A DNA stretch of 64,000 nucleotides from Candidatus Dormiibacterota bacterium (GCA_963697085.1 CAVOMR010000003.1:1026745-1090744); one strand, 5' to 3'; numbered from the stretch's first letter, positions 2-61,703 are shown. Notes: generated by a model from the sequence alone, not told the origin. Translations and numbers: made by a program.

Positions 2-1352
2 TGGGAGGAGTTCTGGCGGCTCGAGGCGATGGGGCTGACGATGTACGGGCAGATGACCGCGGGATCGTGGATCTACATCGGCACGCAGGGAATCCTTCAG
101 GGGACGTTCGAGACCTTCGAGGCGGTGGCGCGGAAGCGTTTCGGTGGCAGCCTGCGCGGGCGGTTGGTGGTGACCTCCGGCCTCGGCGGCATGGGAGGCG
201 CGCAACCGCTCGCGGTGACGATGAGCGGCGGCGTCGCGCTCTGCATCGACGTCGACCGGTCGCGCATCCAGCGGCGTCTCGACACCGGGTATGTCGACGA
301 GGTGTGCGACACGCTCGAAACCGCCGTGCGGCGCGTCGACGTTGCCCGCGAGGAAGGGCGAGCGCTCTCCGTCGCCGTCTGTGCCAACGCCGCAGAGGCG
401 CTGCCGGCGCTGCTCGAACTCCGCGCTTGCGATCGACGTCGTCACCGACCAGACGAGCGCGCACGACCCGCTGAACGGCTACGTCCCGGCGGGTCTTTCC
501 CTCGAGGATGCGGCAGCCCTGCGCGCGAGCGATCCCGAGGCATACGTGCGCAGGTCGCGCCAGTCGATGGCGCGACACTGCGAGGCGATGGTCGAGTACC
601 AGACACGCGGCGCGGAGGTGTTCGACTACGGCAACTCGCTGCGCGACCAGGCGAGGCTCGGCGGTTTCGCGAACGCGTTCGCGTATCCCGGCTTCGTCCC
701 GGCGTACATCCGCGACCAGTTCTGCGAAGGTCGCGGGCCGTTCCGGTGGGTCGCGCTCAGCGGCGATCCGCAGGACATCGCGCGCACCGATTCGGCGATG
801 CTCGAGCTCTTCCCGGACCACGACGGGCTCCATCGATGGATGTCGCTCGCACGTGAGCGTGTGCACTTCCAGGGGCTGCCGGCGCGGATCTGCTGGCTCG
901 GCGCGGGCGAGCGTCATCTCGCCGGGTTGCGCTTCAACGACATGGTGCGCAGCGGCGAGCTGTCGGCGCCGATCGTCATCGGACGCGACCACCTCGACAG
1001 CGGATCCGTCGCGTCGCCGATGCGCGAGACGGAGTCGATGCGCGACGGCAGCGATGCCATCGCCGACTGGCCGATCCTCAACGCGCTGCTCAACACCGCA
1101 AGCGGCGCCACCTGGGTCGCGGTGCACCACGGTGGCGGCGTCGGCATGGGGCTGTCGATCCACGCCGGTGCGCAGGTGTGCGCCGACGGGTCGGAGCTCT
1201 CCGCAAAGCGGTGCGAGCTCGTCCTCACGAACGATCCCTCCACCGGCGTGATGCGGCACGCCGACGCCGGGTATCCCGAGGCGCGCGACGCCGCACGGGA
1301 GCGCGGCGTGCGCGTGCCGATGCTCGACAGCGTGGGCGCGGCAGACGCGTGA
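2..1352 (+). pseudogene. hutU: urocanate hydratase (HutU). It is 5'-partial at the window edge, and the reading frame is broken near 416-421 as assembled.
   Basis: The frame from 2 gives [35 protein letters not shown]. The frame ending at 1352 gives [17 protein letters not shown]...[18 protein letters not shown]...VHHGGGVG. Both are urocanase signatures. Removing one A of GAACTC (416-421) joins them as [18 protein letters not shown]. Confidence 0.9.
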
Positions 1353-2254
1353 ACGCGCGCGAATGGCTCGACGGCGACGCCGAGTTCCCCGACATCGTGC
1401 TGCTCGGCGCACCGATCTCGAAGGCGTCGATCTCACCGGTGCAGTCGTGGTCGACACCGCCCGCATTCCGCGAGGCGCTCTCGCGATTCCCAACCTGGGA
1501 TGCGGAGCACGGCATCGACATCGCGGAGCTGCGCGTGCGTGACCTCGGCGACGTTATCGGCGACCGGGAGGACACGGACGCGGCGGCTGCGCACGCCCGC
1601 ATCCGCGAAGCGACCGAGCGCGCGCCGGCCGGGGTGCTCGTCGTCGTGGGCGGCGACAACTCGCTGACGCGACCGGCGATGCAGGGCCTCATGACGGCAT
1701 CGCCGGATGCGAGCTGGGGACTGCTCACGCTCGACGCGCATCACGACTGCCGGCCCGCGACCGGTGGGTCCCGGAACGGCACGCCGGTGCGCGAGCTGAT
1801 CGAGTCGGGACTCGACGGGAGACGCGTCGCGCAGATCGGCATTCATCCGTTGGGCAACGCCCGTGAGCATGCAGAGTGGGCGCATGCGCAGGGAATCCAC
1901 GTGTTTCCGCTCGACGCAATCCGAGAGTTCGGCATGGACGGCGTCGTGGGATCGGCGCTGACGGCGCTCACCGACGGAGGGGTCGATCGCGTCTATGTGG
2001 ACTTCGACATCGACGTCGTGGACCGCGCGTTCGCGCCGGGATGTCCGGCGAGCCTTCCCGGCGGACTGCACCCACACGATCTGCTGCACGCAGCCTTCCT
2101 GCTCGGCGCTCATGCCTCGGTGGCCGCGGCCGATCTCGCCGAGGTGGACGCGAACAGCGACGTCAACGGCATGACCGTCCGGCTTGCGGCGGCAACGTTC
2201 CTCACCTTCTGCAGCGGGGTCGCATCGCGAACCCACCAGGACGGCGCGTCGTGA
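1349..2254 (+). CDS. hutG: formimidoylglutamase (arginase/ureohydrolase fold)
   Basis: GTG 1349 overlaps the hutU stop (GTGA). Arginase-family motifs [15 protein letters not shown] and VDFDIDVVD are present. It lies between hutU and hutI. Confidence 0.8.
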
Positions 2255-3471
2255 CCGATCTCGCCGTCCACGGCATCGGTGCACTCTGCACGTGCGATCC
2301 GCGGATGGACGGGTCCCTCGGCATCGTGCGCGACGCGGCACTGATCGCCCGCGACGGGATCATCACCTACGCCGGGCCGGAATCCGGCCTCGACCGATCC
2401 GACATCCCGAAGGGAGCGCTCGAGGTCCATGCGCGCGGCGCAGCGGTCATCCCGGGATTCGTCGATGCGCACACCCACATCGTGTGGCTCGGCGATCGTG
2501 GCGATGAGTACGGGCGCCGGGCGGCGGGCGCGTCCTACGAGGAGATCGCCGCGTCAGGGGGCGGCATCCGCGCCACGGTTCGCGCGACAGCCGCCGGAAC
2601 CGTCGACGAGCTCGCGACCGCGGCGCGCGCGCGAGCCCGGAGCATGCTCGCGCACGGCACGACGACCGTCGAGGTCAAGAGCGGCTACGGGCTCGAGCAC
2701 GAGGCGGAGATGCGTGAGCTGGACGCCGCGGTGCGTCTCGGTAGCTGGAACGACCTCCCCGATGTGGTCCCGACATATCTGCCGCTGCACGCGACTCCCG
2801 ACGGGTCGCGCGAGGAGTACATCGAGGCCGTCTGCACGACGGGTGTCGCCGGCGCCGCGAAACGCGCGCGCTTCGTCGACGCCTTCTGCGAGACGGGCGC
2901 GTACACCGTCGAGGAATGCGAGCGGCTGTTCACCGCCGGCCGCGCCCACGCGCTGCGCCCGAAGATCCATGCGGAGCAGCGGTCTCGCAGAGGCGGAGCG
3001 CTCCTGGCGGCCCGCGCGGGCGCGGTCAGCGCCGACCACCTCGAGCACGCATCCGACGATGACTTCCACGCTCTCGCCGCAGCCGGCGTCGTGGGCGTGA
3101 TCCTCCCGGGCGCCTCGCTCACCCTCGGCGGGCCGCCGCCGCCGGGGAGGCGCCTTCTCGACGCCGGCTGCACCGTGGCGGTCGCGACCGACTGCAACCC
3201 CGGCACCTGCTACAGCGAGTCGATGCCGCTCATGATCTCGCTCGCGGTCGCCATGGGCGGGCTCACCCCCGCCGAGGCGCTCGTCGCGGCAACCGGCGGA
3301 GGCGCCGCCGCGCTCGGGCTCGCCGACCGCGGCGTCCTCCGCGCCGGCCTGCGCTGTGACGCGGTGATCCTCAAGACCTCGAACTGGGTCGAAATCGCGT
3401 ACCACCTCGGCGGTGACGTCGTCGACGGCGTGATCGTCAAGGGCCGGTTGGCGGTACCCTCGGAGATCTGA
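2251..3471 (+). CDS. hutI: imidazolonepropionase
   Basis: GTG 2251 overlaps the hutG stop (GTGA). Amidohydrolase motifs FVDAHTHIVW, KSGYGLE, KIHAEQ and ADHLEH are present. The long upstream extension in the ORF track is Arg-rich and non-coding-like. Confidence 0.9.
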   Translation: MTDLAVHGIGALCTCDPRMDGSLGIVRDAALIARDGIITYAGPESGLDRSDIPKGALEVHARGAAVIPGFVDAHTHIVWLGDRGDEYGRRAAGASYEEIAASGGGIRATVRATAAGTVDELATAARARARSMLAHGTTTVEVKSGYGLEHEAEMRELDAAVRLGSWNDLPDVVPTYLPLHATPDGSREEYIEAVCTTGVAGAAKRARFVDAFCETGAYTVEECERLFTAGRAHALRPKIHAEQRSRRGGALLAARAGAVSADHLEHASDDDFHALAAAGVVGVILPGASLTLGGPPPPGRRLLDAGCTVAVATDCNPGTCYSESMPLMISLAVAMGGLTPAEALVAATGGGAAALGLADRGVLRAGLRCDAVILKTSNWVEIAYHLGGDVVDGVIVKGRLAVPSEI

Positions 3472-4928
3472 TGCTCACCGAATCCTCGCCACGCACCCGG
3501 AAAGGACGCCGCGCGGCGGGAACGGTCCTCCCACGCCTCGTGGGGCAGGACCTCGAGGTGCCGCTCGCCTCGGGAGAGGCTCGCACCTACGTGAACCTCG
3601 ACATGGCCGCGAGCACGCCGGCGATGGAGCCGGTCGCCGACGCGGTCATCGAGTTCCTTCCCTGGTACTCGAGCGTGCATCGCGGCGCGGGGTTCGCGTC
3701 CCAGGTGTCGACACGCGCGTATGAGGCGGCACGCGCGGCGGTCGCGGCGTTCGTCGGCGCGCGCTCCTCTGATACCGTCATCTTTGTCAGGAACACGACC
3801 GAGGCCGTCAACCTCCTCACGCACTGCCTGGTGCTGCGCCCCGGGCACTCGGTGCTGAGCACGATCGTCGAGCACCACGCGAATATGCTCCCCTGGCGCC
3901 GCCTCGCCAACGTCGATCTCCTCGACGCACCGGAGTCGCCGGAGCAGCTGCTCGCCGACCTGCGGCGCGCGCTCGAGGACCGACATCGCCCGATCGGGAT
4001 CGTCGCGATCACTGGTGCGAGCAACGTCACCGGCGAGGTCTTCCCGATCGCGGAGATCGGCCGTATCGCGCACGAGCACGGAGCCCTGCTCAGCGTCGAC
4101 GCCGCACAGCTCGCGCCCCACCGCCCGATCGACATGGTGGCCATGGGCATCGACTTCCTCGCGCTCTCGGGACACAAGATGTACGCGCCCTTCGGTGGCG
4201 GCGCCCTGATCGCACCCTCGGCGGTGATGGCGGACGCCGAGCCGATGCTCGCCGGCGGCGGCGCGGTCACGTACGTCACGACCGACGACGTGCAGTGGGC
4301 CTCCCTGCCGGACCGCCACGAGGCGGGGAGCCCGAACGTGGTCGGGGCGATCGCGCTCGGCGCCGCCTGCACCGTGCTCGGCCGGACCGGCATGGCGCAC
4401 ATCGGAGCGCACGAGAAACGCCTGCTCGCGTATCTCGACGGCCAGATCGACGATCTCCCGAGGCTCCACCGGCTGCGGCTGTGGGATGGACCTGACGTCG
4501 ACCGCCTCGGAGTCAGCACGTTCACCGTCGACGGCATGCACCACGCGCTGGTCGCGTCGGTGCTGAGCGCGGAGTACGCGGTGGGGGTCCGCCACGGATG
4601 CTTCTGCGCACACCCGTACATCACGCACCTCCTCGGCGTGAGCATCGGCGAGGCACACACGATCCGCGAGCGGCTTCGGCGCGGCGAGCACCAGGAGATT
4701 CCGGGCGCCATCCGGGCGTCGTTCGGCATGGGCACGACCGTCGAGCACATCGACCGTCTGGTCGCGGCCCTCCGCGAGATCACGACGCACGGACCCCACC
4801 TCGACTACGTCGAGGACCCGCACACCGGCGACTATCTCCCGGTCGGCGACCGGCGGACGCTGCCGTCGTTCGACTTCCTGCCACCGCTCGAGGAGATGGC
4901 GACGCCGTCGGGCTGCGGTCAGTTCTGA
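3471..4928 (+). CDS. class-V (cysteine desulfurase-like) PLP-dependent aminotransferase
   Basis: ATG 3471 overlaps the hutI stop (TGATG). Motifs are SNVTGEVFPIAEIGRIAHEHGALLSVDAAQ and SGHKMYAPFGGGALI (Schiff-base Lys). Confidence 0.8.
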   Translation: MLTESSPRTRKGRRAAGTVLPRLVGQDLEVPLASGEARTYVNLDMAASTPAMEPVADAVIEFLPWYSSVHRGAGFASQVSTRAYEAARAAVAAFVGARSSDTVIFVRNTTEAVNLLTHCLVLRPGHSVLSTIVEHHANMLPWRRLANVDLLDAPESPEQLLADLRRALEDRHRPIGIVAITGASNVTGEVFPIAEIGRIAHEHGALLSVDAAQLAPHRPIDMVAMGIDFLALSGHKMYAPFGGGALIAPSAVMADAEPMLAGGGAVTYVTTDDVQWASLPDRHEAGSPNVVGAIALGAACTVLGRTGMAHIGAHEKRLLAYLDGQIDDLPRLHRLRLWDGPDVDRLGVSTFTVDGMHHALVASVLSAEYAVGVRHGCFCAHPYITHLLGVSIGEAHTIRERLRRGEHQEIPGAIRASFGMGTTVEHIDRLVAALREITTHGPHLDYVEDPHTGDYLPVGDRRTLPSFDFLPPLEEMATPSGCGQF

Positions 4929-6986
4929 CGCGCGGGCAGAATGCCCAGCTCCCGGGACAGCCCGACCATGTCGGTCACCGGCGCCTTGCACACAAACCCA
5001 TGGCAGACGTACGCGGCCGGCGAGCCCTGCACGAGGGGCTTTCCCTCCAGAAGCGGCACGTCGCCGGGAGCTCCCCACGCGAGCACCGTGCGCGGGTCGA
5101 AGAGGCCTTGCGCCAGGCCCAGGAGCGACCGGGTCACCGGGTCGGCCGGATCGCCGGCGATCGCGATCTCGCGCATCGGACCGACCACGAGCTCCATCGC
5201 GGCACCGAGCCCGGCGACCGCGAGTGGTGCGCGTCCGACCACTGACGCGAGCGGTGCGACGATCTCGGTCGCGTGCTCACGCCACCGGTCCTCGCCGGTG
5301 AACGCGTGCATGCGGCAGAACAGCGTTGCGGCCACTGACTGGCCCGCGCTCACCGGGTTGTCGTCGATCGTGCGCGGGCGGACGATGAGCGGCTCGGCGT
5401 CGGCCGCGGTGTCGTAGTACGCGCCGGCTTCGTCCCGATACTGCTGCACGATCCGTTCGCAGAGTCCGAGTGCTGCACTGAAGTACCTCGACTCACCGGA
5501 CGCGGCGTAGAGCGTGAGCAGGGCGTCTCCGAGGTTGGCAGTGTCGTCGAGGAACCCGATGATGCGCGCGCCACCTTCGTTCCAGATGCGGTGCACGACG
5601 CCGTCGCGAACCAGGTTCTCGAGCAGAAAGTCCGCGCACGTCCGCGCGATCTCGACGTAGTCCTTGCGCCCGAGCATCGAGCCGGCCTCGGCGAACGCGG
5701 TGACGGCGAGCGCGTTCCAGGACGTGACGACCTTCCCGTCGCGAGCCGGTGCGGCGCGGTCCGCCCGAGCCGCGAGCAGACGCGTGCGAATGTCCTCGAT
5801 CCTCGTGCGCAGCGCGGGCTCCTCGAGCTGCATCGAGCGTGCAACCTGCGCGAGCGGGTACGGCATCGAGAGCACGGTGGTGCCGTGCTCGAAGTTGCCG
5901 CTGTCGACCACCCCGAACACCCGGGCGGCGAGGGCACCGTCATCGGGGCCGAGCACGTCGCGAAGCTGCGCCGGCGTCCAGACGAAGAACGCGCCTTCGC
6001 CTCCCGGGCTGTCCGCGTCCTGCGACGCGGCGAAGCCGCCCTCGGGCAACCGCAGCTCGCGAGCCGTGTAGTCGAGGGTGCGCGTGCACACCTCGAGCAT
6101 CCCCTCGTCGAAGCTGAGCCCGTACGCGTGCAGATACACGGGCGCCAGGAGCGCGTTGTCGTACAGCATCTTCTCGAAGTGCGGCACGGCCCATCGCCCG
6201 TCGACGCTGTAGCGATGGAAGCCACCACCGACCTGGTCGTGGATGCCGCCGCGCGCCATCGCGTCGAGCGACATGATCGCGGCGTCGCGCAGCGCGATCC
6301 CCTCCTTGTCGCCCGGGCTGCGTCTGACTCGGCGCAGCGACCCGCGCAGCAACAGGTCGAGCGCCTGCGGGTGCGGAAACTTCGGCGCCGCACCGAAGCC
6401 TCCGTGACTGCGATCAACCTGCCCGAGCAGCGTGGTTGCCGCGGAGTCGAGGAGTGCCTCGGTCGGCTCCACCGCACCGGGAAGCTGACGTGGCGCAACA
6501 GCTTCACGCACCTGCTCGCCCATCGCCGATATCTCCGCGGCCTGCTTGCTGTATGCGTCGGCGGCGGCGCGCAGGACCGTGCCGAACCCGTGCATGCCCT
6601 GGCGATCCGCGGGCGGAAAGTACGTCCCCGCGTAGAACGGAAGGCCGTCCGGGGTGAGGAAGACGGTGAGCGGCCACCCGCCGGCGACGCCCATCGCCTG
6701 GGCGGCGCTCATGTAGATCGTGTCGACGTCGGGCCGCTCCTCGCGGTCGACCTTGATGCTGACGAACAGCTCATTCATGATCGCCGCGATCTCCGGGTTC
6801 TCGAATGAACTCGTGCGCCATCACGTGGCACCAGTGACAGGCGCTGTACCCGACGGAGAGGACGACCGGCCGGCCCTCGGACCGCGCTCGATCGAACGCC
6901 TCGTCACCCCACGGATACCAGTCGACCGGATTCTCCGCATGCTGCAGGAGGTACGGGCTGGACTCGGCGGCGAGACGGTTCGGCAC
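4919..6986 (-). pseudogene. thioredoxin-domain protein of the YyaL/DUF255 family. The frame is broken at 6807-6812 as assembled.
   Basis: The N-terminal piece is [50 protein letters not shown]. The main piece is [19 protein letters not shown]... Deleting one base of GAACTC gives [17 protein letters not shown], the family consensus junction. Confidence 0.85.
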
Positions 6987-11891: not shown

Positions 11892-13551
11892 ATGACGACG
11901 GCGACCGGGCGTGTCCGCGCTCCCGAGCTGAACGGGTCCGGGGGGTGGATCAACACGGACAAACCACTGTCGCTGCGCGACCTGCGCGGACGTGTGGTCG
12001 TCCTCGATTTCTGGACGTTCTGCTGCATCAACTGCCTGCGCGTCGTCGAGGAGCTGCGCCCTCTCGAGGAGCGCTTCGGCGACCGGCTCGTCGTGATCGG
12101 CGTCCACTCACCGAAGTTCCCGCACGAGTCCGACCACGCGGCGGTCGCGCGGGCGGTCGCGCGCCACCGGATCCGGCATCCGGTGCTCGACGACCCGGAG
12201 ATGGAGACCTGGCAGCAGTACGGCGTGCGAGCGTGGCCAACGCTGGTCGTGATCGACCCGGACGGCTACGTGGTGGCGATGGCCTCGGGCGAGGGCAACG
12301 GGCCCGCGCTCCGCGGCGTGATCGAGCAACTGCTGGACGGCCGCACCGACCTCGCCACCGGCCCCGCGTTCACCCCGGTGCGGATCCCCCCCACAGCCGC
12401 TCTCGCTTTTCCCGGCAAGGTCGCGTCCGACGGCGGCGACCGCATCGCGATCGCCGACACCGGGAATGATCGCGTCCTCGTGTCCGATCTTCGGGGACAC
12501 ATCCGGCATGTGTTCGACGGCTTCGACCAGCCGCAGGGAGTGCGCTTCGGCGGTGAGCGCCTCATCGTCTGCGACTCGGTCGCGGGCGAGGTGGTCTCGA
12601 TCGCGCTCCCGGGCGGCGAGCGCACAGTCCTCGCCTCCGGACTCCGCTCGCCGTGGGACTGCGTGCGGCTCGAGGATGGACGCATCGCCATCGCCGAGGC
12701 AGGCTCGCATCGCATCCTCGCCGTGCCCGATGCAGGCGGTCCGGCCACGGCGATCGCGGGCAGCGGAGCCGAGGGCCTGCGGGACGGCCCGGCCGGCTCG
12801 GCGCACCTCGCGCAGCCGAGCGGGCTGACGCTGCTTCCGGACGGCGCGCTCGCCTTCGCCAACTCCGAGGTCTCGGCGCTGCGTGTCCTCCGCAACGGGA
12901 CTGTGGAGACGCTCGCCGGCAAGGGGCTCTTCGAGTGGGGGACGGCCGACGGCGATCGGAGCAGTGCCCGCCTCCAGCACCCGCTCGGTGTGGGCGCGCT
13001 CCGCGACGGCTCGATCGCGGTCGCCGACACCTTCAACTCCTTGCTGCGAATCTGGGAGAAGGGTTCGCTGCGGACACTCCACCTGAGCGAGCCCGTCGAT
13101 GAGCCCGGAGGGATCGATGTGCTCCCGGACGGCCGCCTGCTCGTCGCCGACACCAATCATCACCGGGTGATCGCCGTCGATCCCGTCACGGGCGCGGTGA
13201 CCCGGATACCGGTCGGGGATGTGGCGCCGTCCACGCCGCCCGCAGGCGACGCGCTCGCCGGCGCGCCCGGCGCGGAGCTGCGGTTGACGGCGACGGTCGA
13301 CCTCGGCGATTCCGATCTCGATCTGGCGCAGGGTCCGCCCGTCCACGTGAACGTGAGCGCCGATCCTCCGACGCTCCTGGGCGCCGGCCCGCGCTCCTGG
13401 GCGCTCGAACTCGCTGCCCGCGTCGATCGAACTCCGTCTCGGTCAGGCGGGGAGCGGCGCGCTCGTCGTGGACGTCATCGCCTCGACGTGCAAGGGCGAC
13501 GTCTGCACGATCGCTCGAGCCACCCGAGAGCACGCGCTGGTCGTCGGCTAG
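11892..13551 (+). pseudogene. thioredoxin-like / NHL-repeat beta-propeller protein. The frame is broken near 13407-13434 as assembled.
   Basis: Thioredoxin-like VVLDFWTFCCINCLRV is followed by NHL-type repeats. As assembled, the ORF runs to 13859 in Arg-rich nonsense that overlaps cbpA. The other frame gives LRLGQAGSGALVVDVIASTCKGDVCTIARATREHALVVG-stop at 13551. Deleting one A in either GAACTC (13407 or 13429) joins the frames. Confidence 0.75.
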
Positions 13552-41952: not shown

Positions 41953-41962
41953 TTCTAACCCC

Positions 41963-43540: not shown

Positions 43541-43677
43541 AGCGCATGTGCGCTCGCGCGGCACGCACGGGCCACCGTTGGGGCACAGGCGGATGCCCGA
43601 AGGTGCAGTCCGCTTCGCCCTTCCGGCTGCCCGCATCAGCCTTGCGCGCGGTGCGCCACGGCGCGAGCCTCGAGGCG

Positions 43678-45731: not shown

Positions 45732-46391
45732 ATGAGCGAGTGGGTGCGGTGGCACGACGCGTACGCGGAAGGGGGACCGCTCGCGCTTCGACTCGGTGTT
45801 GTCCAGGACCTCATTCGCTCGGCGCTCGACGCCTGCCCACCGGGACCGATACGAGTCATCAGCCTGTGCGCAGGTGACGGCCGCGATCTGCTCGGAGTGC
45901 TCGAGGATCACCCGCGCCGCACGGACGTGCGTGCGCGTCTCGTCGAGCTCGATCCTGAACTGGCGGAGCGCGGGCGCGCGCGCGCCGCGAATATCGGCCC
46001 GCGAGTCGAGGTCGTGAACGGTGACGCCTCGACCACGAGCGCGTACCTCGGTGCGGTGCCGGCGGACATCGTGCTGGTGTGCGGTGTCTTCGGCAACATC
46101 ACCGACGACGATGTGCGGCAGACCATCCGGTGCCTGCCGGAGCTGTGCGCGCCCGACGCGACGGTGATCTGGACGCGCGGCACATTCGCGCCGGATCTGA
46201 CGCCCGCGATCCGCGACTGGTTCACCGCAAGCGGATTCTCCGAGCTCGCGTTCACCGCCATCCCGGACACGACCGCGGCGGTCGGCGCCGACCGGCTCAC
46301 CTCGGAGCCGCAGCCATTCGAGCCCGACGTGTCCCTGTTCACCTTTCTCGCGAGGCATCGACGCCCATCCCAGCGCGGCGTCAGGCTCTGA
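45732..46391 (+). CDS. class I SAM-dependent methyltransferase
   Basis: Motif I-like VISLCAGDGRDLLGVL, ELDPELAE, and post-I/II IVLVCGVFGNITDDD. Confidence 0.7.
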   Translation: MSEWVRWHDAYAEGGPLALRLGVVQDLIRSALDACPPGPIRVISLCAGDGRDLLGVLEDHPRRTDVRARLVELDPELAERGRARAANIGPRVEVVNGDASTTSAYLGAVPADIVLVCGVFGNITDDDVRQTIRCLPELCAPDATVIWTRGTFAPDLTPAIRDWFTASGFSELAFTAIPDTTAAVGADRLTSEPQPFEPDVSLFTFLARHRRPSQRGVRL

Positions 46392-47209: not shown

Positions 47210-48889
47210 ATGCCCGATCCGGAGACAACGCGCCCCGACCTGGATGAGGCGATGCGCCGCCGCCGTCTCACCCGCGACGCGAGCCGCGAGGATGTCGTCG
47301 CCGCGCGTCATGCGGCTGGACGCAGGACCGCGCGTGAGAATCTCGACGACCTGGTCGACGAAGGCTCCTTCATCGAGTACGGCGGTCTCGCCATCGCAGC
47401 GCAACGAGGACGGCGCACCGTCGACGATCTCATCCGGCGCACACCGGCCGACGGACTCGTCGGCGGCACCGCGCGGATCAACGGCGAGACCGTCGGCGCG
47501 GATCGAGCCGACTGCGCGGTCCTCTCGTACGACTACACCGTGCTGGCGGGCACGCAGGGCGTCATGGGTCACCGCAAGAAGGACCGCCTGTTCGATGTCA
47601 TCGAGCGCCGGCGACTGCCGGTCGTGCTCTTCGCGGAGGGTGGCGGCGGCCGTCCCGGTGACACCGATCACGCGATGGTCGCCGGTCTTGATGTCATGGC
47701 CTTCGCGCTCTGGGCAGGGCTCTCCGGGCTCGTGCCGCGCATCGGCATCGCGTCCGGGCGATGCTTCGCCGGCAACGCGCTGCTGCTCGGGTGCTGCGAC
47801 CTCATCATCGCGACACCGGACGCGAGCATCGGCATGGGTGGTCCCGCGATGATCGAGGGAGGCGGCCTCGGCGTCGTCGCCGCCGAGGACGTCGGCCCGT
47901 TCGACGTGCAGGTTCGCAACGGCGTGATCGACATCGCCGCCGACGACGAGGCCGATGCCGTTCGTCTCGCCCGCCAGGCGCTGTCGTTCTTCCAGGGACC
48001 GATCGCATCGTGGGAGGCGCCCGACCAGCTCCGGCTCCGCGATGTCGTTCCCGAGAATCGGCGTCGCGCCTACGACGTCCGCCGCGCGATCGAGGTGCTT
48101 GCCGACTCCGATTCGACGCTCGAGCTCAGGCCCGGATTCGGACGCGGCATGGTCACCGCGCTCGCGCGCATCGAGGGAAGGCCGATCGGGATCGTCGCCA
48201 ACAATCCGATGCACCTCGCGGGCGCGATCACGAGCGACTGCGCCGACAAGGCGGCGCGGTTCCTGCAACTCTGCGAAGCGTTCCGGCTGCCGGTGCTCTT
48301 CCTCTGCGACACCCCCGGCATCATGGTCGGACCCGACGCCGAGGCAACCGCACTCGTTCGCCATGCAAGCCGCCTGTTCCTCGCCGGCGCGGCGCTCACC
48401 GTGCCGTTCGTCACCGTCGTGCTGCGCAAGGGGTACGGGCTCGGGGCGCAGGCGATGGCCGGTGGGAGCTTCCGCTCACCGCTCATGACGGTTGCGTGGC
48501 CGACCGGAGAGTTCGGCGGCATGGGCCTCGAGGGCGCCGTGAAGCTCGCCTACCGCAAGGAGCTGGACGCCATCACCGACCCCGACGCACGTCAGGCGAC
48601 GTACGACGCGATGGTGGCGGAGGCATATGCGAGAGGGGCGGCGCTCAACACCGCCATGTACTTCGAGATCGATGACGTGATCGACCCGGCGGAGACGCGC
48701 GCGCTGGTTGCGGCAGTGGCACTCCGACCAGCTGTCGAAGGGCGCGGCATGCCGGCGCACCCGCCATCAGCGCGACGATTCGTGGAACTCATGGTGAGCG
48801 TGCGACGGCGGAGGATCAGGGCGGCAGCGGACAGCAGCATACCGACGATCGCGAGCGCCGAACCGAACAGGGTCGGCACCGTGGAATGA
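47210..48889 (+). CDS. acyl-CoA carboxylase carboxyltransferase (beta) subunit. The 3' end is probably artefactually extended, with the true stop likely at 48797.
   Basis: Carboxyl-transferase domains: CAVLSYDYTVLAGTQGVMGHRKKDRLF, LFAEGGGGRPGD, IVANNPMHLAGAI and FLCDTPGIMVGP. Deleting one A of GAACTC (48785-48790) gives the family-typical end RRFVDSW-stop. Confidence 0.88.
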   Translation: MPDPETTRPDLDEAMRRRRLTRDASREDVVAARHAAGRRTARENLDDLVDEGSFIEYGGLAIAAQRGRRTVDDLIRRTPADGLVGGTARINGETVGADRADCAVLSYDYTVLAGTQGVMGHRKKDRLFDVIERRRLPVVLFAEGGGGRPGDTDHAMVAGLDVMAFALWAGLSGLVPRIGIASGRCFAGNALLLGCCDLIIATPDASIGMGGPAMIEGGGLGVVAAEDVGPFDVQVRNGVIDIAADDEADAVRLARQALSFFQGPIASWEAPDQLRLRDVVPENRRRAYDVRRAIEVLADSDSTLELRPGFGRGMVTALARIEGRPIGIVANNPMHLAGAITSDCADKAARFLQLCEAFRLPVLFLCDTPGIMVGPDAEATALVRHASRLFLAGAALTVPFVTVVLRKGYGLGAQAMAGGSFRSPLMTVAWPTGEFGGMGLEGAVKLAYRKELDAITDPDARQATYDAMVAEAYARGAALNTAMYFEIDDVIDPAETRALVAAVALRPAVEGRGMPAHPPSARRFVELMVSVRRRRIRAAADSSIPTIASAEPNRVGTVE

Positions 48890-50979
48890 GGCGCAGCGCC
48901 GGTCTCCGGCGTGCCGGGTGGCGTCGGCGGTGGCACCGCGGACACGACGATGCTCGCGGAGCCCGTGTTGTTGCCCGGGACCGGATCGGTCTGCGTCTCG
49001 CCGGACTTCGTTGCCGTGTTGACGATGAGCCCGAGCGCCTCGAGGCGCACGGTGATGTGAAGCCTCGCTGTTCCCCCGACCGCGAGAGCGCCGATGGTCC
49101 AGAGCCCGCTCGCAACGTCGTACGAGCCTGCGGTCGCGGTGGAGCTCACGTACACGACTCCGTTCGGGAGCACGTCCGTCACCGTGACGCCGGTGGCGGC
49201 CACGGGGCCGTTGTTGTGCGTGGTGATGGTGTACACGTCGTCCTGACCGATCGTCGCCCTGGCGACGCTGACGACCTTGGTGACGGCGATGTCGGCGTAC
49301 GATCCCGGCGGCACGATGTTGAGCGACCTCGTGAGCTGCTCACTCGGGTAGTACGTCCAGAGGTCGAGACCCTTGGCGTCACCGAAGCTACCCGTGCAGG
49401 GAACGTTGGTGTTGCCACCCGATGCGGTGCCGAACGCGCGCTGCGTTGAGGACGTGTCGAAGCCGGTGATGGGATTGCTGAACGCAGTCGCCGGCGCCGC
49501 GTTGCCGCAGAGCGCCGTGCCGGGTGTGCCGACGGGGACGCCGGTGGTGGTGACATACCCGCGGTCGTCGTAGAAGCCGCCGCTGCAGCCGCCGGTGAAG
49601 GGCGGGCATGTGCCGCCGGGCGGGTTGAGCATCGTGATCGTGGGTCCACCCTGCGTGTCGTTCTCATCGTCGATGAACGGGAAGTGGTACTCGCCCGCGT
49701 GGACCTCGATCTTGTACGGGTATGACGCACCCGCCGGGAAGTACACGCCGGAGTTGTCCTTGCCATCCCAGGACACCGTCTGTGTGCCCGCGCCCTTGAG
49801 CCCGCTGAGCACGCGGTTGTTGGGATTGGTCGGATCGAAGTTGACACCGTCGCGGCTGATCACGATCTGATAGACGCCGGCGACGTTCGACGTGTACGTG
49901 AAGGTCCCACCCGTCTGAAAAAGGCTCGTGCTCCCGACGACGGTTCCGGCGAATCCGATGTTGCTGACCACCGACGCGATCGGAAGGAGCGGGATGCCGA
50001 GCGCGGTCAACGTCACGTTGGCGGGCGGTGTGAAGAAGATGGGAAACGCTGGAGGCGCGAAGATCACGCCGCCGTCGACCGTCGTCAGCTGCCCGGGGCT
50101 GCCGCTGTTCTCGGCGAGCGCGTCGTGGTACAGCGGAGTCACACCGTCGGGCTCGAGGAAGCCGAGCTGGCTGCCGTACTCCAGCCAGCCGTTGGGGTCC
50201 ATACCTCGCTGATCGATGCGGTACCGGAACCCGTCGGTCGTCACCGCGTACATCGTCGAGTCGACGGGCAATCCGTTGTTGCCCGTGAACAGCGCGAGCA
50301 CATACGAGAACACACGCCCGCTGCGCGTTGACGAGGGGTCGGTGGGATCGTTCCGTACGGTCACGTCCCATCCGGCAATCGAGGATCCCTGCGCCATGCT
50401 GAAGTCGCTCGCAGCCGTGAGCCCGACGTCCGCGCCGACAGTGCCGTCCGTGTTGGACGCCAGCCCGTCAGGTCCGATCATCGCGATGCTGTAGATACCG
50501 GTGATCGGCGCCTGGTACACACACGGCGTGTACCCGTTGGTCACGCCACCGCCGGGAACGGTGTCGGGACCGGCCAGCTCCTCGGCGCGGCTGGTGATCC
50601 GTCCCTGCGCGGCGATGCCGGATGACAAGCGCTGCGCCGCGCATGAGAACGACGTGGCCCCCGGGATCGTCTCGTTGCCGGGCGGCCCGGTGACGAGCCC
50701 CGGATTCCAGATGAGAATGTCCGCAGACCCAAATCCCATCCCGGTCGACCCGACGAGCAGTGATTCACCGGCCTCGACAAACGCGTGCAGGAGCGTGCGC
50801 CGGACGACCACGCCGTTGCCGTCTGTGCCTGTGCGCCACTCGGTGTTCGCGCGCGATCCGGACGCGCTGCTCGGGTAGAGATTCTGGGATCCGTCTGCGA
50901 GGACGTTGACCGCGGATGCGATCAGCACGCCGATGCTCAACAGTGCGGCAGCGAATCCCTTTCGTTGCACGCGCCGCAT
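48592..50979 (-). CDS. large secreted surface protein with a DUF11 repeat and an LPXTG-like (TPETG) anchor signal followed by an unexpected tail
   Basis: The start is at MRRVQRKGFAAALLSIGVLIASAVNVLADG. DUF11 is DIAVTKVVS...YTITTHNNGPVAATGVTVTDVLPNGVVYVSSTATAGSYD...GLWTIGALAVGGTARLHITV. Next comes PETGAAPHSTVPTLFGSALAIVGMLLSAAALILRRRT, then ~70 further aa that overlap the convergent gene. Confidence 0.65.
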   Translation of the reverse strand: MRRVQRKGFAAALLSIGVLIASAVNVLADGSQNLYPSSASGSRANTEWRTGTDGNGVVVRRTLLHAFVEAGESLLVGSTGMGFGSADILIWNPGLVTGPPGNETIPGATSFSCAAQRLSSGIAAQGRITSRAEELAGPDTVPGGGVTNGYTPCVYQAPITGIYSIAMIGPDGLASNTDGTVGADVGLTAASDFSMAQGSSIAGWDVTVRNDPTDPSSTRSGRVFSYVLALFTGNNGLPVDSTMYAVTTDGFRYRIDQRGMDPNGWLEYGSQLGFLEPDGVTPLYHDALAENSGSPGQLTTVDGGVIFAPPAFPIFFTPPANVTLTALGIPLLPIASVVSNIGFAGTVVGSTSLFQTGGTFTYTSNVAGVYQIVISRDGVNFDPTNPNNRVLSGLKGAGTQTVSWDGKDNSGVYFPAGASYPYKIEVHAGEYHFPFIDDENDTQGGPTITMLNPPGGTCPPFTGGCSGGFYDDRGYVTTTGVPVGTPGTALCGNAAPATAFSNPITGFDTSSTQRAFGTASGGNTNVPCTGSFGDAKGLDLWTYYPSEQLTRSLNIVPPGSYADIAVTKVVSVARATIGQDDVYTITTHNNGPVAATGVTVTDVLPNGVVYVSSTATAGSYDVASGLWTIGALAVGGTARLHITVRLEALGLIVNTATKSGETQTDPVPGNNTGSASIVVSAVPPPTPPGTPETGAAPHSTVPTLFGSALAIVGMLLSAAALILRRRTLTMSSTNRRADGGCAGMPRPSTAGRSATAATSARVSAGSITSSISKYMAVLSAAPLAYASATIASYVA

Positions 50980-50995
50980 GATGAAGGATTCGCCG

Positions 50996-51487
50996 TCAGA
51001 TATGGCGGATCTCCTTGAAGAGCTCCTTGAAGAACGGGCGTCCCCAGAGTCCGATCGAGAGAACGCCGCCGAACAGGACGACCGCATCGATGCTCGCGCG
51101 CCCCTGCTTCGTCCAGTACACGTCCTTCAGGTCGAGCCAGAGCGCGAATTCGTCGAGCGTCAGCGCGGAGGCTCCGCCGTACAGCACCGAATTGAACTTC
51201 GCAAGCGCGTCATCGCTCTGACCGGCGCGGTCCTCTTCGACGTGGATCAACCACAGGTAGCCGCTGCCGAGCAATCCCGCGATGCCGAAGACCAGGTGAT
51301 GGAGATGACGGCCACCTTCGGAGAGATTGTGAAAGGGGCCGACGCCATCACGAATCGCGTGGGTGATCGTGCGGGTCGCCGCGAAGGTCGCGAAAAATGA
51401 CACCGACGACAGAAACAGCCGCTCGCGTCGCGTGTCATGGAACGCGTGGCGATACAGCTCCAACGCACGCCGGGGGGTGATCGGCAC
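50996..51487 (-). CDS. hypothetical integral membrane protein
   Basis: Four hydrophobic segments (FLSSVSFFATFAA, HHLVFGIAGLLGSGYLW, VLYGGASALTL, AVVLFGGVLSIGLW) and no family recognised. Confidence 0.45.
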   Translation of the reverse strand: MPITPRRALELYRHAFHDTRRERLFLSSVSFFATFAATRTITHAIRDGVGPFHNLSEGGRHLHHLVFGIAGLLGSGYLWLIHVEEDRAGQSDDALAKFNSVLYGGASALTLDEFALWLDLKDVYWTKQGRASIDAVVLFGGVLSIGLWGRPFFKELFKEIRHI

Positions 51488-51559
51488 CCGACTACCCTAC
51501 TCGATGCGAGGAAGCCGCGCGCCGCTCGGTGCGGCGCGCGGCTCTCGCATTCGTCAGCG

Positions 51560-54500
51560 CTAGGAAATCGTGTACCTGTAGGGGATCCGGACCAGCTGAT
51601 CGGAGCTGTCCGTGTTGAAGTTGAACGTCTCGACGGCGATGAATCCGGACACCATCTGTCCGTGCGAGCCGCTCGGCGTGAAGGTCACCGCGATGGAGCC
51701 CGTCTGACCCGGGTCGAGGATGGTCGGGGTGTAGCCTCCGGTGAGCCCTTCGAGTGCGGACCAGATGTCACCGCTTGCCGTGCCGACGGTCAGATCGAAG
51801 GTCTTGGTCGCCGCGGCGCCGCCCGCCGACCACGGCACGGTCGGCGCGGTTCCGGCAAACGGACCGATCTCGGTCGGTCCGAACCCCCAGACGGAAGCCG
51901 GGATGTCCGGCGCGGTGAGGAGTTCCACCGCGTCGTCCCCCGAGGAGAACGAGATGTTGTCCGGGAAGCCGAACGCCGGGCTGGCGTCGAAGTTGATCGG
52001 GACCGTCAACTCCGCCGCGAAGGCGAGCTGCGACGTGAACGGCGGCACGACGAACTGCGGCACCAGCGAGAAGTCGGAGATCGGGAGCGTCCCGGTCGTG
52101 TCCGTCAGGCTCGCCAGCGACAGCTGGCTGCTGCTGTTGCTCCGCGGGTCGAGCGAGTAGTCCTCTTCGGAGTTCCCGGTGTTCTTGATGGAGATGGTCG
52201 CGGTGACCGGCACTCCGCTTGCGAGGTGCGTCGCGAAGCTGTCGGGCACCCCCGAGGAATGAACGCGCACCGTGTTGAAGCGGATCTTCCCGCTGATCGT
52301 CGCGCTCGTCAGCAGCGACGACACACCGTTGACCTGCGCGAGGTCGAGGCTCCAGCGGCCCGGAGCCGGGTTCGCCCAGGAGAAATGCATGGTGGTCGTC
52401 AGCGCCAACTCACTCTGCGTCTCGGTGCTCTCGACGTCCACCGGCATGACCCGGGGATCGACGAGGAACCCGAGCACCTGGTAGCCCGGCGCGCTCACCG
52501 TCACGTCGACGTCGACGTCACGCTCGCCCGCGGGCACGTTGAACTGATAGACGAGCTCCTGACCGTAGAACGCCGCGCGCTCGTTGCCGCCGGTGATGGT
52601 TCCGTGGAACGTGCCGACGTTGGCGTGGAAGGGCACGAGCGCGCGAAGCGCGACCGGGATGGTCGACTGCGGATCTGCGATTGCCGCGGAGTCACCGAAC
52701 ACGACCAACTCGTTGAGGTCGCCGGCCGCGGACGGCGTCCGGACGGTGACGCGGAACGTCCCCGTGTGGTCGGGCGCGATCGTGCGTGCAGCCGGGAACA
52801 CCGCGCCACTCACGGTGTGGAACGACTGCCTGGTGATCGTGTACGTCACCGCGCCGTTGTACGGTGTGCCCGTCGAGAAGACCAGCATCGTCCAGGTGCC
52901 GGGCACTGCGTCGTGCACCTCGACCTGCCCGAAGCCACCGGCCGCTCCCTGCGGGCGGGACTGCGAGGTCATCTGGCCGGTCGGGCTGAAGAGCGACAGC
53001 CGCAGGGTCGATGACGGCTGCGATGCCGTGTCCCACGCGAAGCTCGCGACCATGCGGTCGGCGCCCGCGGGAACGGTGAACGGCACCAGGTGCACATCCG
53101 GCACCACCGCACCCGTCTGATAGATGAACGTCGGGTCGGTGGTCGCATTGAGCGTCAGCGATCCCGAGGCGATCGTCGACATCGCGCCGAGTGCGCGAAG
53201 CTTCGGAGCGATCGTCGCCGTGGCGGCGCCGGTGTTGGTCACGCTGACACGGACCGTCTGGCTCGACCCCGCGACAGCGGTCGCGGAGATCGAGTTCGGA
53301 GCGATGAGCAGACCGTCACCCTGCGGCGCGGGCGTGCCGTGCGCATCGTGGATCAACTCCGCCGTCTGCACCGCGCGGAGCGCGTCGACGAAGCCGGCGC
53401 CCTGGTTCTGGCCAGGAGCGTCCAGATCCTGCGCGCTGCTCATGAGGATCTGCTTCACGAGCTCCGGAGTGGGGCTCGCACCGCCGTGCGTGTCTCGGTA
53501 GGCCTCGATCACGAGCGCGGCGGTGCCCGCGGTGAGGGGGCAGGACTCGCTCGTGCCGCCGAAGGCGACGATCGGCTGCGGGGATGAGCCGTTGTACTGG
53601 TCCGCACACTCGGTGAACACCGCGGTGTTGGTCGAGCAGTCGGCCCATCCGGACTCGCCCGGGGCGACGACGTCGATCGTGTCGGGCCCGTACTCGGTGT
53701 CGCCACTGCTGCTGAACGACGAGACCTCGTTGCTGAGCCAGCCGTTGCCACCGAACTGGTAGCCGTAGGACGTGGTCTGCGCGTAGAGCTGGTAGCTCGT
53801 CGTGGCGCCGGCGGAGATGACGCCGGGGTTGGTCGCGGGCGTGCCGATCGTGTTCGTGATGCCCGCGTCTCCGGAGCTTGCGACCACCGTGATGCCCGCG
53901 GCGACTGCTTCGGCGTCAATGAGCGCATCGGCGTCGGTGCCCGGATTCGGGATCGGGTTGCCGCCGAACGACTGGCTGAGGATGTCGACATGGTCGACCT
54001 CGACCGCGTATTCGATGGCCTGGAGAATGAGGCTGTTGAACGCGAGGTTCGCGTCACCGAACACCTTCATGACCGCGACCGACGCACCGGGCGCGACGCC
54101 CTCGATCCTGATGTTGCATCCGGGCGGCAGCGGGTGAGCGGGGTTGACCTCGCCGCTGAGGTCGAAGACCTCGTTCCCCTGCGAGATGATCGAGCTCGCG
54201 TCGCCGAACGCCTCCTCGCCGCCGGTGACACCGCCCGTACCCTCACCGGTGAAGTCCTCGTAGTCGAAGATCGCGGACGTGCCACCACGCATGAAGTCGG
54301 GGATGGTCGGATCGAGCCCGTCCGGGAAGACCGCGACCTTGACGCCGGCGCCGTCGGCCAGCGACCGGGCATCGGGCGCCGTCGAACCGGGCTCGTCGAC
54401 CACGTGCATGAGCGAGAGTGCCTCGGGCTCGATGAGGGGATCCGCGGGGTTGGTCGGACAGATCTGCGTGCCGCCCGCGGACGGAACCGCCGTCCTCACG

Positions 54501-55015
54501 TTCGCCCCTGCCACGACATTGCCGCCGACGGCCGCAGCGTCGCTCGTGACACTCGTCGCCAGGCTCGGACCGGTGATCTCGGTGTCCGGGATGACCGCGC
54601 CCACGAGAGGATTCGCGGCGAGCCGAGATGCCTCCGCTGCCGAGACGGTCGCCGAGACGGCGTTGATCAGCGAGTAGCCGTGAGCCTTCGGCGCCTTGAG
54701 GAGGTGCAGCTCGCTGAGGATCGACCTCTGGTCGGCGGCAAGCCGTGCGGCTCGAACCTTCAGGGTCCCGTCACTCCCGGTGACTCCGTTCTCCTGGTTC
54801 TTCAGGATGACGATGACGCGCTGATCCGGCTTTGCAGCCAGGTACGCGATCTGGGTCGGGCTCAGCGAGCTCGGATCGACGCGCGGGACAGACGTCGTTC
54901 GCGCGTTCACAGCCAGCGGTACTGTCGCAAGCGCGGCGCACGCCCCGGCCGTCAGCAGCTTGATCACCTTGGAGCCGGCGGCTGCATGCCCGCTCCGGAT
55001 GCGATCTCGATTCAT
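51560..55015 (-). CDS. very large secreted S8/S53-family serine peptidase with an N-terminal propeptide and a ~600-aa C-terminal extension of Ig-like domains
   Basis: The signal peptide is KLLTAGACAALATVPLAVNA, followed by an I9-like propeptide. Motifs are VKVAVFPDGLDP and the Ser motif FGGTSESCPLTAGTAALV. The start is taken at ATG 55015. Confidence 0.75.
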   Translation of the reverse strand: MNRDRIRSGHAAAGSKVIKLLTAGACAALATVPLAVNARTTSVPRVDPSSLSPTQIAYLAAKPDQRVIVILKNQENGVTGSDGTLKVRAARLAADQRSILSELHLLKAPKAHGYSLINAVSATVSAAEASRLAANPLVGAVIPDTEITGPSLATSVTSDAAAVGGNVVAGANVRTAVPSAGGTQICPTNPADPLIEPEALSLMHVVDEPGSTAPDARSLADGAGVKVAVFPDGLDPTIPDFMRGGTSAIFDYEDFTGEGTGGVTGGEEAFGDASSIISQGNEVFDLSGEVNPAHPLPPGCNIRIEGVAPGASVAVMKVFGDANLAFNSLILQAIEYAVEVDHVDILSQSFGGNPIPNPGTDADALIDAEAVAAGITVVASSGDAGITNTIGTPATNPGVISAGATTSYQLYAQTTSYGYQFGGNGWLSNEVSSFSSSGDTEYGPDTIDVVAPGESGWADCSTNTAVFTECADQYNGSSPQPIVAFGGTSESCPLTAGTAALVIEAYRDTHGGASPTPELVKQILMSSAQDLDAPGQNQGAGFVDALRAVQTAELIHDAHGTPAPQGDGLLIAPNSISATAVAGSSQTVRVSVTNTGAATATIAPKLRALGAMSTIASGSLTLNATTDPTFIYQTGAVVPDVHLVPFTVPAGADRMVASFAWDTASQPSSTLRLSLFSPTGQMTSQSRPQGAAGGFGQVEVHDAVPGTWTMLVFSTGTPYNGAVTYTITRQSFHTVSGAVFPAARTIAPDHTGTFRVTVRTPSAAGDLNELVVFGDSAAIADPQSTIPVALRALVPFHANVGTFHGTITGGNERAAFYGQELVYQFNVPAGERDVDVDVTVSAPGYQVLGFLVDPRVMPVDVESTETQSELALTTTMHFSWANPAPGRWSLDLAQVNGVSSLLTSATISGKIRFNTVRVHSSGVPDSFATHLASGVPVTATISIKNTGNSEEDYSLDPRSNSSSQLSLASLTDTTGTLPISDFSLVPQFVVPPFTSQLAFAAELTVPINFDASPAFGFPDNISFSSGDDAVELLTAPDIPASVWGFGPTEIGPFAGTAPTVPWSAGGAAATKTFDLTVGTASGDIWSALEGLTGGYTPTILDPGQTGSIAVTFTPSGSHGQMVSGFIAVETFNFNTDSSDQLVRIPYRYTIS

Positions 55016-55161
55016 GAGCCCACTCCTCCTACCGCTGCTGGATCGATCGGGATGGTAACGCACGATTGACGCTTTTGCGCCAAACTGTGCATTCGGTCAT
55101 TCTGCTCCGCCTTTCGGGCGCAACAAGACGATCCCGTATCAACCTCGAGGACGAGCGGGGG

Positions 55162-59915: not shown

Positions 59916-60431
59916 TCACAGGCTCCTCGCGAAGACCTCGAGATCGGAGTCGGAGAAAAGAGCGAATGTGATCTCCCGCAGCGACGTCGCGTCCGCGGCG
60001 AGGGCCAGGTCCGCCTCGTCGATCGCGATCGGTGCGGCGATGTCGATCGGGAAGCCATAGATGCCGGTGCTGATCGCCGGCGCGGCAACCGTCGCCGAGC
60101 CGTGCTCCGCGGCGAGGGCGAACGCTGCCCGGTAGGCGGACGCGAGCAGGCCTGCCTCCCCGTGGTTCCCGTCGCGCCAGCGCGGTCCGACGGCGTGGAT
60201 CACGTACCTCGCCGGGAGACGGCCCGCGCCGGTGATCACGGCCGACCCCGTCGGCGTCCCCCGGTAGCGCTGCTGCAGCTCGCGCATGAGGTCCGGGCCG
60301 GCCGCCCTGTGGATCGCGCCGTCGACACCGCCGCCACCGGCGAGCGAGCTGTTCGCCGCGTTGACGATGGCGTCGACGACGAGCGTGGTGATATCGGCTC
60401 GGAGCAACAGGATGCGCCCCGCGCCGACCAC
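59916..60431 (-). CDS. macro-domain protein (O-acetyl-ADP-ribose deacetylase-like)
   Basis: Sequence LLRADITTLVVDAIVNAANSSLAGGGGVDGAIHRAAGP...VIHAVGP...ISTGIYGFP. The start GTG 60431 is tentative. Confidence 0.85.
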   Translation of the reverse strand: MVGAGRILLLRADITTLVVDAIVNAANSSLAGGGGVDGAIHRAAGPDLMRELQQRYRGTPTGSAVITGAGRLPARYVIHAVGPRWRDGNHGEAGLLASAYRAAFALAAEHGSATVAAPAISTGIYGFPIDIAAPIAIDEADLALAADATSLREITFALFSDSDLEVFARSL

Positions 60432-60436
60432 CCGGA

Positions 60437-61703
60437 TCAGCCCGTCAGAACTCCATCCGCGCGGGCCAGCGCGAGGCACACGTTGTGACCGCCAAAGCCG
60501 TACGACGTGCTCAGGGCGAAATCGATGCGCGCATCGCGTCCGTGATTGGGGACGTAGTCGAGGTCGCACTCCGGGTCCGGCTCGTCGAGGTTGATCGTCG
60601 GCGGCACGAATTGGTCACGAATGGCAAGAACAGTGATGACCGCCTCGACGGCGCCGGCGGCGCCGAGGAGGTGCCCGTGCATCGACTTCGTCGACGACAT
60701 GGGGATTGTGCCCGCAACCTCGCCGAGCGCCGCCTTCACGGCCTTGGTCTCCGCAGCGTCATTCATCTGCGTCGACGTGCCATGCGCGTTGATGTAATCG
60801 ACCTCGTCGGGCTCGCGTCCCGCTCGCTTCAGCGAACGGAGGATGCAGCGCCGTGCGCCATCGCCCTGCTCGTCGGGTTGCGTGATGTGGAACGCGTCGG
60901 CTGTCGCACCGTACCCCGCAACCTCACCGTAGATGCGCGCGCCGCGCGCGACCGCGTGTCCCCAGTCCTCGAGCACGAACATGCCGGCGCCCTCGCCCAT
61001 CACGAAGCCGTCGCGGTCCTTGTCGAACGGGCGCGAGGCGCGCTCGGGCTCGTCGTTGCGAGTCGAGAGTGCCTGCATGGCGTCGAACGCCGCGACGCTG
61101 ATGTTCGTGATCGACGCCTCGGTACCGCCGGTGATGATCGCCGTCGCCTCGCCGCGCCGGATCCACTCCGCCGCCTCGCCGATCGCGTGACCGGACGACG
61201 CGCAGGCGCTGACGATCGCGTAGTTCACACCCTTGGCGCCGCACTCGATGGCGATGGCGCCCGCGGGCATGTCGATGATCATCGACGGGACCGTGAACGG
61301 CGAGACGCGGCGAGGACCCTGGTTGTACAGCGCGAGGACGTTGCGCTCGATCACCTCGATGCCACCGACGCCCGACGCCACGAGGACACCGACGTCCTCG
61401 GCGATCGGCCGGATGTCGAGGCCCGAGTCCTCGATCGCCTGACGCGCGGCGAACAGTGCGAGCTGGGTGCACCGGCTGGTGCGCCGCGCCTCCTTCTTGC
61501 CGAGCACCGCCTCGGGGTCGAATCCCTTGACCTGCCCTGCGATCTGCGTCGTCAGATGCGAGGCGTCGAAGGCGGTGATCGGTCCGATGCCGCCGTGACC
61601 GCGGCGGCAGGATTGCCAGGTCGAACTCGGCGTCGAGCCCGAGCGGGGTCACGGCGCCGATGCCGGTGATCGCCACGCGCGGCGTGCCGTTGGTTGCGCT
61701 CAC
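60437..61703 (-). pseudogene. fabF: beta-ketoacyl-ACP synthase II (KAS II). The frame is broken at 61623-61628 as assembled.
   Basis: The N-terminal piece is VSATNGTPRVAITGIGAVTPLGLDAE. The main piece has ...IVSACASSGHAIG..., INAHGTSTQMND and SMHGHLLGAAG. Deleting one base of GAACTC gives DAESTWQSCRRGHGGIGPITAFDASHLTTQIAGQVKGFDPEAVLGKKEARR. GTG 61703 overlaps the fabI stop. Confidence 0.9.

Follow-up and report, generated by a model that had tools for sequence, protein, structure and literature searches.

We analysed a stretch of 64,000 nucleotides from a contig of Candidatus Dormibacterota (hereafter the window), in which conserved genes change their reading frame at the hexamer GAACTC, and found seven sites on the + strand that carry exactly one base more than every relative fetched for comparison. 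Removing one A gives GACTC at all seven sites, which is also what most of the relatives read there. Based on comparisons between assembled sequences, we consider it highly probable that the seven additional A residues are consensus errors of a long-read metagenome assembly and not features of the organism's DNA. The affected genes, which we count as eight, include hutU, a YyaL-like gene, a thioredoxin/NHL gene, the tube gene of a contractile injection system, a carboxyltransferase gene, fabF and a Macro-domain gene that the initial annotation had missed (Table 1). Six of the frame changes had been described at + strand GAACTC hexamers in the initial annotation of the window, and all of them proved to be real when examined with a codon model and against relatives.

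The window has a G+C content of approximately 70%, and the closest matches of its proteins come from Candidatus Dormibacterota metagenome genomes. Collinear contigs of relatives were available for 1-20 kb (L081, L082 and L137), 31-51 kb (L083-L095) and 46-64 kb (L132-L136) of the window, and the homology comparison of DNA and proteins with these relatives spans about 49 kb. A scan of a genome collection with the YyaL protein returned only matches of at most 49% identity. At the site in hutU, L137 (94% amino-acid identity) has the same flanking bases as the window and GACTC between them (CTCGACTCCGCG), its aligned sequence being CTGCTCGA-CTCCGCGCT, and in the corrected urocanase the Urocanase Rossmann domain is continuous (1-209/209, Pfam). 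Correction of the YyaL-like gene yields a protein of 688 residues, as in relatives, in which the Thioredox_DsbH domain is continuous (2-161/163) and the ESFE motif is regained; L081, L082 and L137 are one base shorter at this site (GGACTC or CGACTC). For the tube gene, 13 of 13 related contigs are one base shorter, 10 of them reading GACTC, and the corrected protein, with a continuous Phage_T4_gp19 domain, shares 95-99% identity with eight short-named metagenome contigs along its entire length. At the 5' end of fabF, L133, L134 and L136 read GT-GGACTCGGCG, and the corrected FabF protein is 97% identical to P0121 with a continuous ketoacyl-synt domain. Deletion of one A, the repair that had been proposed from the sequence at the outset, gives an uninterrupted Pfam match over the junction for the urocanase, the DUF255/YyaL protein, the gp19 tube protein and the N-terminal domain of the ketoacyl synthase.

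The remaining sites lie close to gene ends. A site at the 3' end of the carboxyltransferase gene had been predicted, and this is borne out by two relatives, L088 (GTGG-ACTCGTGGTGA) and L132 (GTCGA-CTCGTGGTGA), which both give VDSW-stop. The two relatives read GTG GAC TCG TGG TGA at this position, and the corrected protein has 528 residues compared with 527 in relatives. For the thioredoxin/NHL gene, two alternative positions, 13407 or 13429, had been named, only the first of which is upheld by the C-termini of homologues. Correction at 13407 results in a protein of 552 residues, the usual length in this family, with WALDSLPASIELRLG where homologues have WALDSLPVSIEVRLG, and both L081 (GGACTC) and L082 (CGACGC) are one base shorter there. 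Correction at 13429 gives WALELAARVDRLRLG, which matches no homologue in an alignment of the C-termini, and we therefore rejected 13429 as a faulty site. The hexamer at 60448, which the initial annotation had left ambiguous, is a seventh true site: L132, L133, L134 and L136 are all one base shorter, and the correction lets FabF end with ARADGV-stop, as had been foreseen, compared with ARADGA-stop in relatives. At the same time it repairs the overlapping Macro-domain gene, which, when left uncorrected, reads ATG GAG TTC TGA (MEF-stop) and is broken at codon 3; the corrected gene starts with MESDGLIR and codes for 179 residues, as in relatives.

Table 1. Sites of the GAACTC hexamer and of a related motif in the window. 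The additional base is given in brackets.
Position	Strand	Sequence	Location
416-421	+	GA[A]CTC, extra A	Inside hutU (urocanase, + strand, partial gene 2-1352); frame switches here
6807-6812	+	GA[A]CTC, extra A	Inside YyaL-like DUF255 gene (- strand, 4919-6986); coding strand GAG T[T]C; frame switch
13407-13412	+	GA[A]CTC, extra A	3' end region of thioredoxin/NHL gene (+ strand, 11892-13551 corrected)
41692-41697	+	GA[A]CTC, extra A	Inside contractile injection system tube gene (- strand, 41487-41952)
48785-48790	+	GA[A]CTC, extra A	Three codons upstream of the stop of the carboxyltransferase gene (+ strand, 47210-48797 corrected)
60448-60453	+	GA[A]CTC, extra A	11-base overlap of fabF 3' end and Macro-domain gene 5' end (- strand, 59916-60456)
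61623-61628	+	GA[A]CTC, extra A	5' end region of fabF (- strand, 60445-61703 corrected); frame switch
13429-13434	+	GAACTC, genuine (GAA CTC, Glu-Leu)	Not an error site
24306-24311	+	GAACTC	Intergenic, between divergent genes; outside the cover of the fetched relatives
42255-42259	+	AACTC, candidate substitution	GACTC in 11/11 relatives; Ser to Leu in sheath protein

A scan that is blind to the motif leads to five of these sites. Here, we used a codon-usage Viterbi model with explicit frameshift transitions, followed by a stop-codon check at each frame change on the same strand. Five internal same-strand frame switches without a nearby stop were found (416, 6806, 13407, 41691 and 61607), and all five coincide with + strand GAACTC, the switch at 61607 corresponding to the 61623 site. 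A further switch at 63402 was rejected as a frameshift, as it reflects an ordinary overlap of an EAL-domain gene and an inositol monophosphatase gene. Neither of two homology scans, one collecting all indels of a length not divisible by three in comparison with L082, L081 and L137 and the other using the open reading frames of relatives in tblastn, found further uncompensated coding frameshifts in the roughly 49 kb compared. Only one type of lesion is present in the window, an extra A at + strand GAACTC.

The hexamer GAACTC occurs 16 times on the + strand of the window, in line with an earlier estimate by eye of about 16, and 21 times on the - strand. Eight copies on the + strand are genuine and all lie in frame, consistent with the earlier view that such sites exist alongside the faulty ones; the five that were checked have the same length in relatives. 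In contrast to the + strand, 0 of the 21 copies on the - strand break a frame. Each is in frame or intergenic, reading GAG TTC in + strand genes and xxG AAC TCx, or once GAA CTC, in - strand genes, and for the sole intergenic copy (19988) the relative L082 also has GAGTT. With two A positions per hexamer, the 16 hexamers offer a target of 0.0005 of the window, and the chance of seven out of seven insertions falling on it is approximately 1e-23. The strand bias is 7/16 (+) compared with 0/21 (-) among GAACTC hexamers (Fisher p = 0.001) and 7/42 (+) compared with 0/43 (-) per GACTC-type site at risk (p ~0.006-0.012). As recognised in the initial annotation, the + strand orientation is kept across genes on both strands, and the mRNA reads GAACUC in three of the genes and GAGUUC in the others.

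The broken gene products are found exactly in the public protein collection, all of them derived from one NCBI/ENA contig of 1,846,868 bases. They comprise a 107-residue tube fragment that includes an out-of-frame tail, a 619-residue YyaL fragment and a 356-residue FabF protein ending with ARADGVLTG; the corrected tube and thioredoxin/NHL proteins were not found in the public protein collection. A contig of this length from an uncultured soil phylum suggests a long-read assembly. Among the relatives, four contigs in ENA (L132, L138, L139 and L081) have Flye-style names. L132, L138 and L139 each have one extra base at a GAACTC that is absent from every comparator, and all three hexamers are located on the contig + strand once converted to the orientation of their contig. 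For L139, an independent assembly from another sample, L140, is available, which is 99.3% identical. The thioredoxin/NHL gene is broken in L139 only, where L140 has CACGAG-TCGGAC and L139 has CACGAGTTCGGAC (GAG-TC compared with GAGTTC). This pair is the nearest available stand-in for re-sequencing, and it demonstrates that insertions of this kind belong to an individual assembly.

Some of these contigs also contain indels of a different kind, as judged against short-read-style assemblies of relatives. In L132 (ENA ERZ25039467 contig_49899), indels in varied contexts split genes, leaving FabF with 331 instead of 421 residues and the carboxyltransferase with 288 instead of 527, and in L138 (ERZ25039470 contig_47833) purA is reduced to 64 residues in the same manner. 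Fragmentation is milder in L081 (ERZ25039557 contig_3726), with YyaL reduced to 458 residues and two genes fused. We do not regard the indels of L132 and L138 as simply the same phenomenon, since they mostly occur in varied contexts with one GAACTC case each.

If the insertions were real, they would require a site- and strand-specific mutation by which GACTC gains an A on one of the replication strands, for instance through damage or faulty repair at a modified base or through replication errors at a modified adenine. In this case, hutU, fabF, the tube gene of the injection system and four or five other genes would have just been inactivated and would represent very recent pseudogenes. The specificity for motif and strand would fit a process linked to a replication strand, as the 64 kb probably lie inside one replichore, and the sequence agrees with the public record. 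However, when the corrected frames downstream of the shifts are compared with relatives, synonymous changes exceed amino-acid changes in fabF (121 to 7), hutU (90 to 21), YyaL (155 to 71) and the tube gene (23 to 2). As the differences are mostly synonymous, the genes have not decayed; they are still under purifying selection, which is not relaxed downstream of any of the shifts, and real shifts would therefore all seven need to be extremely recent. Seven independent inactivations within 64 kb would be needed without a lesion of any other kind, and the genes hit include fabF as well as the gene for a structural part of an injection system whose cluster is otherwise intact. All relatives are intact. 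In addition, the insertions appear sporadically at other sites in other long-read assemblies and are absent from the 99.3% identical independent assembly, and an extrapolation to the 1.85-Mb contig would give about 200 such frameshifts. Neither mixed lesions nor relaxed selection, the hallmarks of pseudogenes, was found. We thus regard real insertions as very unlikely.

Strain mixtures are common in metagenome-derived contigs, and one might speculate that some members of the population carry the insertions and that the assembler chose those alleles. The metagenomic source of the window is compatible with this idea, and the 126 substitutions over 21.7 kb between L139 and L140 reveal real strain variation in the group. 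But variation between strains is not expected to consist of an identical single-base insertion that is tied to one hexamer and one strand, selection would act against alleles with frameshifts in seven conserved genes, and all objections to real pseudogenes also apply, which makes this explanation highly unlikely. A script would also produce changes of this kind, which are limited to the + strand and hit some but not all matches to a simple pattern, and the window might have been edited after download, either by planting or during file processing. Since the exact broken products are already part of the public record, planting is ruled out, and the same type of error is present in other public assemblies; editing of any kind is extremely improbable. 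Lastly, programmed recoding, in which the ribosome shifts frame or transcription slips at a conserved signal, can practically be dismissed: the same hexamer is indeed found at every frame change, but it is fixed on the DNA + strand whatever the orientation of the gene, so that the mRNAs differ and a single translational signal is excluded, the frameshift is present in no relative, AA or UU does not form a slippery run, for which prfB- and dnaX-type sites are the reference, and one site is located three codons before a stop and another at codon 3.

In accordance with the initial annotation, which had read the pattern as a basecalling or polishing artefact, we propose that the extra A residues were introduced during consensus generation, a reading supported by the relatives, the single lesion type, the purifying selection, the public contig and the recurrence elsewhere. 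The true sequence at each site would be GACTC. Reads of the strand bearing GACTC would tend to gain an A, leading to near-balanced evidence in the pile-up, and the assembler or polisher would keep the insertion at about one-sixth of the sites, with the affected orientation limited to motifs on the contig + strand. This limit could have two causes. The consensus model or software might treat forward and reverse reads unequally, or the draft might have been built from reads of one orientation, which polishing then failed to overturn. The extra bases in L132, L138 and L139 are likewise found on the contig + strand in all three cases. Under the draft-backbone idea, this would have a chance of 1 in 8, which speaks slightly in favour of the first cause. 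Systematic motif errors are known to survive in nanopore consensus sequences, with approximately 70% of consensus errors located in Dcm motifs under default models (PMC6591954), and modification-induced nanopore errors are confined to reads of one strand (PMC11610603). Native DNA also raises insertion and substitution rates (bioRxiv 10.64898/2026.01.14.699587). Flye followed by a single Medaka round on nanopore data alone has been used to build large soil catalogues (PMC12313526), although we do not claim a link to the contig analysed here.

Several points weigh against consensus errors as the explanation. The closest relatives share approximately 77-89% nucleotide identity with the window in long alignments and are other strains or species, and the comparison was made between assembled sequences. 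We infer the sequencing platform, the behaviour at the read level and any role of base modification. Only about 17% (about 1/6) of the + strand GACTC sites are affected, and no flanking bases were found that separate the 7 affected from the 35 unaffected + strand GACTC sites and would point to an extended motif. A read-level error at a non-palindromic motif should hit both orientations, so that the limit to one strand needs an extra assumption on the software or on the backbone of the draft. Finally, published methylation-linked nanopore errors are mainly substitutions and not insertions (PMC11610603).

Methylation at GANTC/GAGTC, as suggested in the initial annotation, would be a plausible cause of the extra A. 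An error induced by a modification would be expected to hit both orientations of the motif equally, which differs from the 7/42 (+) and 0/43 (-) sites found here, and a read-level methylation error alone leaves the restriction to one strand unexplained. A search of the 64-kb window for DNA methyltransferases was negative and turned up only a small gene (45732-46388) of the class-I SAM methyltransferase-like type. No depletion of the motif was seen under synonymous-codon shuffling (78 observed, 88 +/- 7.5 expected). Restriction avoidance, as might be deduced from a 3-fold deficit of GACTC compared with dinucleotide shuffles, was rejected, as this deficit is an effect of codon structure.

Substitutions at the motif were also considered. 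Apart from the sheath protein change at 42255 (Table 1), the window reads GAGTT at 36156-36160, where three of four relatives have GAGTC, resulting in an Asp to Asn exchange in a VgrG-like protein. These two changes may be substitution errors at the motif or natural differences and provide only a lead. With these two candidates, substitutions at the GACTC motif in the window show no excess over control k-mers. In the comparison of L139 with L140, the first base of GACTC is changed from G to A at L139 positions 3572 and 16229, one of which turns the conserved Ser of the YyaL ESFE motif into Leu, and at 17157 GAGTC stands against GGGTC. In total, 4 of 144 differences between these assemblies fall on a GACTC pentamer, compared with about 1 estimated by chance.

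The window has a number of other features. An extracellular contractile injection system cluster is located at 32332-44358 and looks intact apart from the frameshift in the tube gene. It codes for Baseplate_J, a VgrG-like spike (Phage_base_V/GPD), eCIS_core, a gp19-type tube and a sheath protein, contains a divergently transcribed Pvc16_N gene and is kept in related metagenome contigs. Between the carboxyltransferase gene and the BacA-side genes (48592-55063), two large genes for secreted proteins are found, one for a DUF11 repeat protein (831 residues) and one for an S8 subtilase (1167 residues), which are missing at that position in L133-L136. In these contigs, the carboxyltransferase gene adjoins PHP and two-component genes, which are located at 16.8-19.9 kb in the window. 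A gene at 22799-24184 (-) codes for a protein of four near-identical units in tandem, each of which is approximately 117 residues long and contains an IPT/TIG domain, and - strand GAACTC copies at 23016, 23367 and 23718 are evenly spaced because of the 351-base period of this repeat. A DUF222 and HNH endonuclease gene at 20088-21305 (-), a gene type that is common in Actinomycetota, lies beside a PadR regulator and a HAAS-domain gene. A long open reading frame at 30841-32592 (-) is proline-rich and has a zinc ribbon at the N-terminus and an F5/8 type C-like domain at the C-terminus. The codon model accepts this frame as coding in parts only, and an antisense open frame of 699 codons at 31751-33850 (+) overlaps it. 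Compared with synonymous-codon shuffles of the whole window, GATC is strongly over-represented (598 observed, 449 expected, z = 10.8), as are TCGAC and CTCGAG, and several C-rich pentamers, for example GGCCC and CCCCC, are strongly under-represented.

Taken together, it is almost certain that the frame changes at GAACTC are not a real biological feature and that the genes are intact, so that the pattern is of little biological but of practical importance. A single motif seems to give rise to approximately one false frameshift in every 9 kb of a public 1.85-Mb contig of a poorly known soil phylum, or to about 200 by extrapolation. Gene callers emit truncated or chimeric proteins from such sequences, which have already entered public collections, and annotation pipelines would call pseudogenes, so that fatty-acid synthesis or histidine degradation could be left out of metabolic reconstructions by mistake. 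The simplicity of the pattern allows automatic correction, and its value lies in the warning about a public assembly and in the ease with which this assembly could be mended. In addition, the pattern could point to a methylated motif of this lineage or to a strand asymmetry of a widely used polisher, either of which would be useful to those who build long-read metagenome catalogues.

One of the closest known parallels is provided by the nanopore errors at Dcm CCWGG sites, where a short motif likewise accounts for most residual consensus errors, which survive polishing, are independent of read depth and introduce spurious differences to the genome (Wick et al. 2019, PMC6591954). In contrast to these, we find an A inserted at GACTC, at about 1/6 of the sites and on one contig strand, and methylation is hypothetical. 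The mismatches described by Liu et al. (2024, PMC11610603) are similarly tied to motifs and restricted to reads of one strand, and their G2A class is similar to the possible changes from G to A that affect the first GACTC base in L139 and in the window. Those errors are substitutions in reads, whereas here we mainly see an insertion fixed in the consensus. Single-base indels that split conserved genes are also known from the fragmentation of genes in long-read metagenomes (e.g. the proovframe preprint, 10.1101/2021.08.23.457338), a generic form of which is found in L132 and L138. Such fragmentation occurs in varied contexts, whereas the seven errors of the window are all located at one hexamer. 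Decaying genomes with true pseudogenes, which show mixed lesions and relaxed selection, resemble the window in that several conserved genes are interrupted; unlike them, the window has a single lesion type and no decay.

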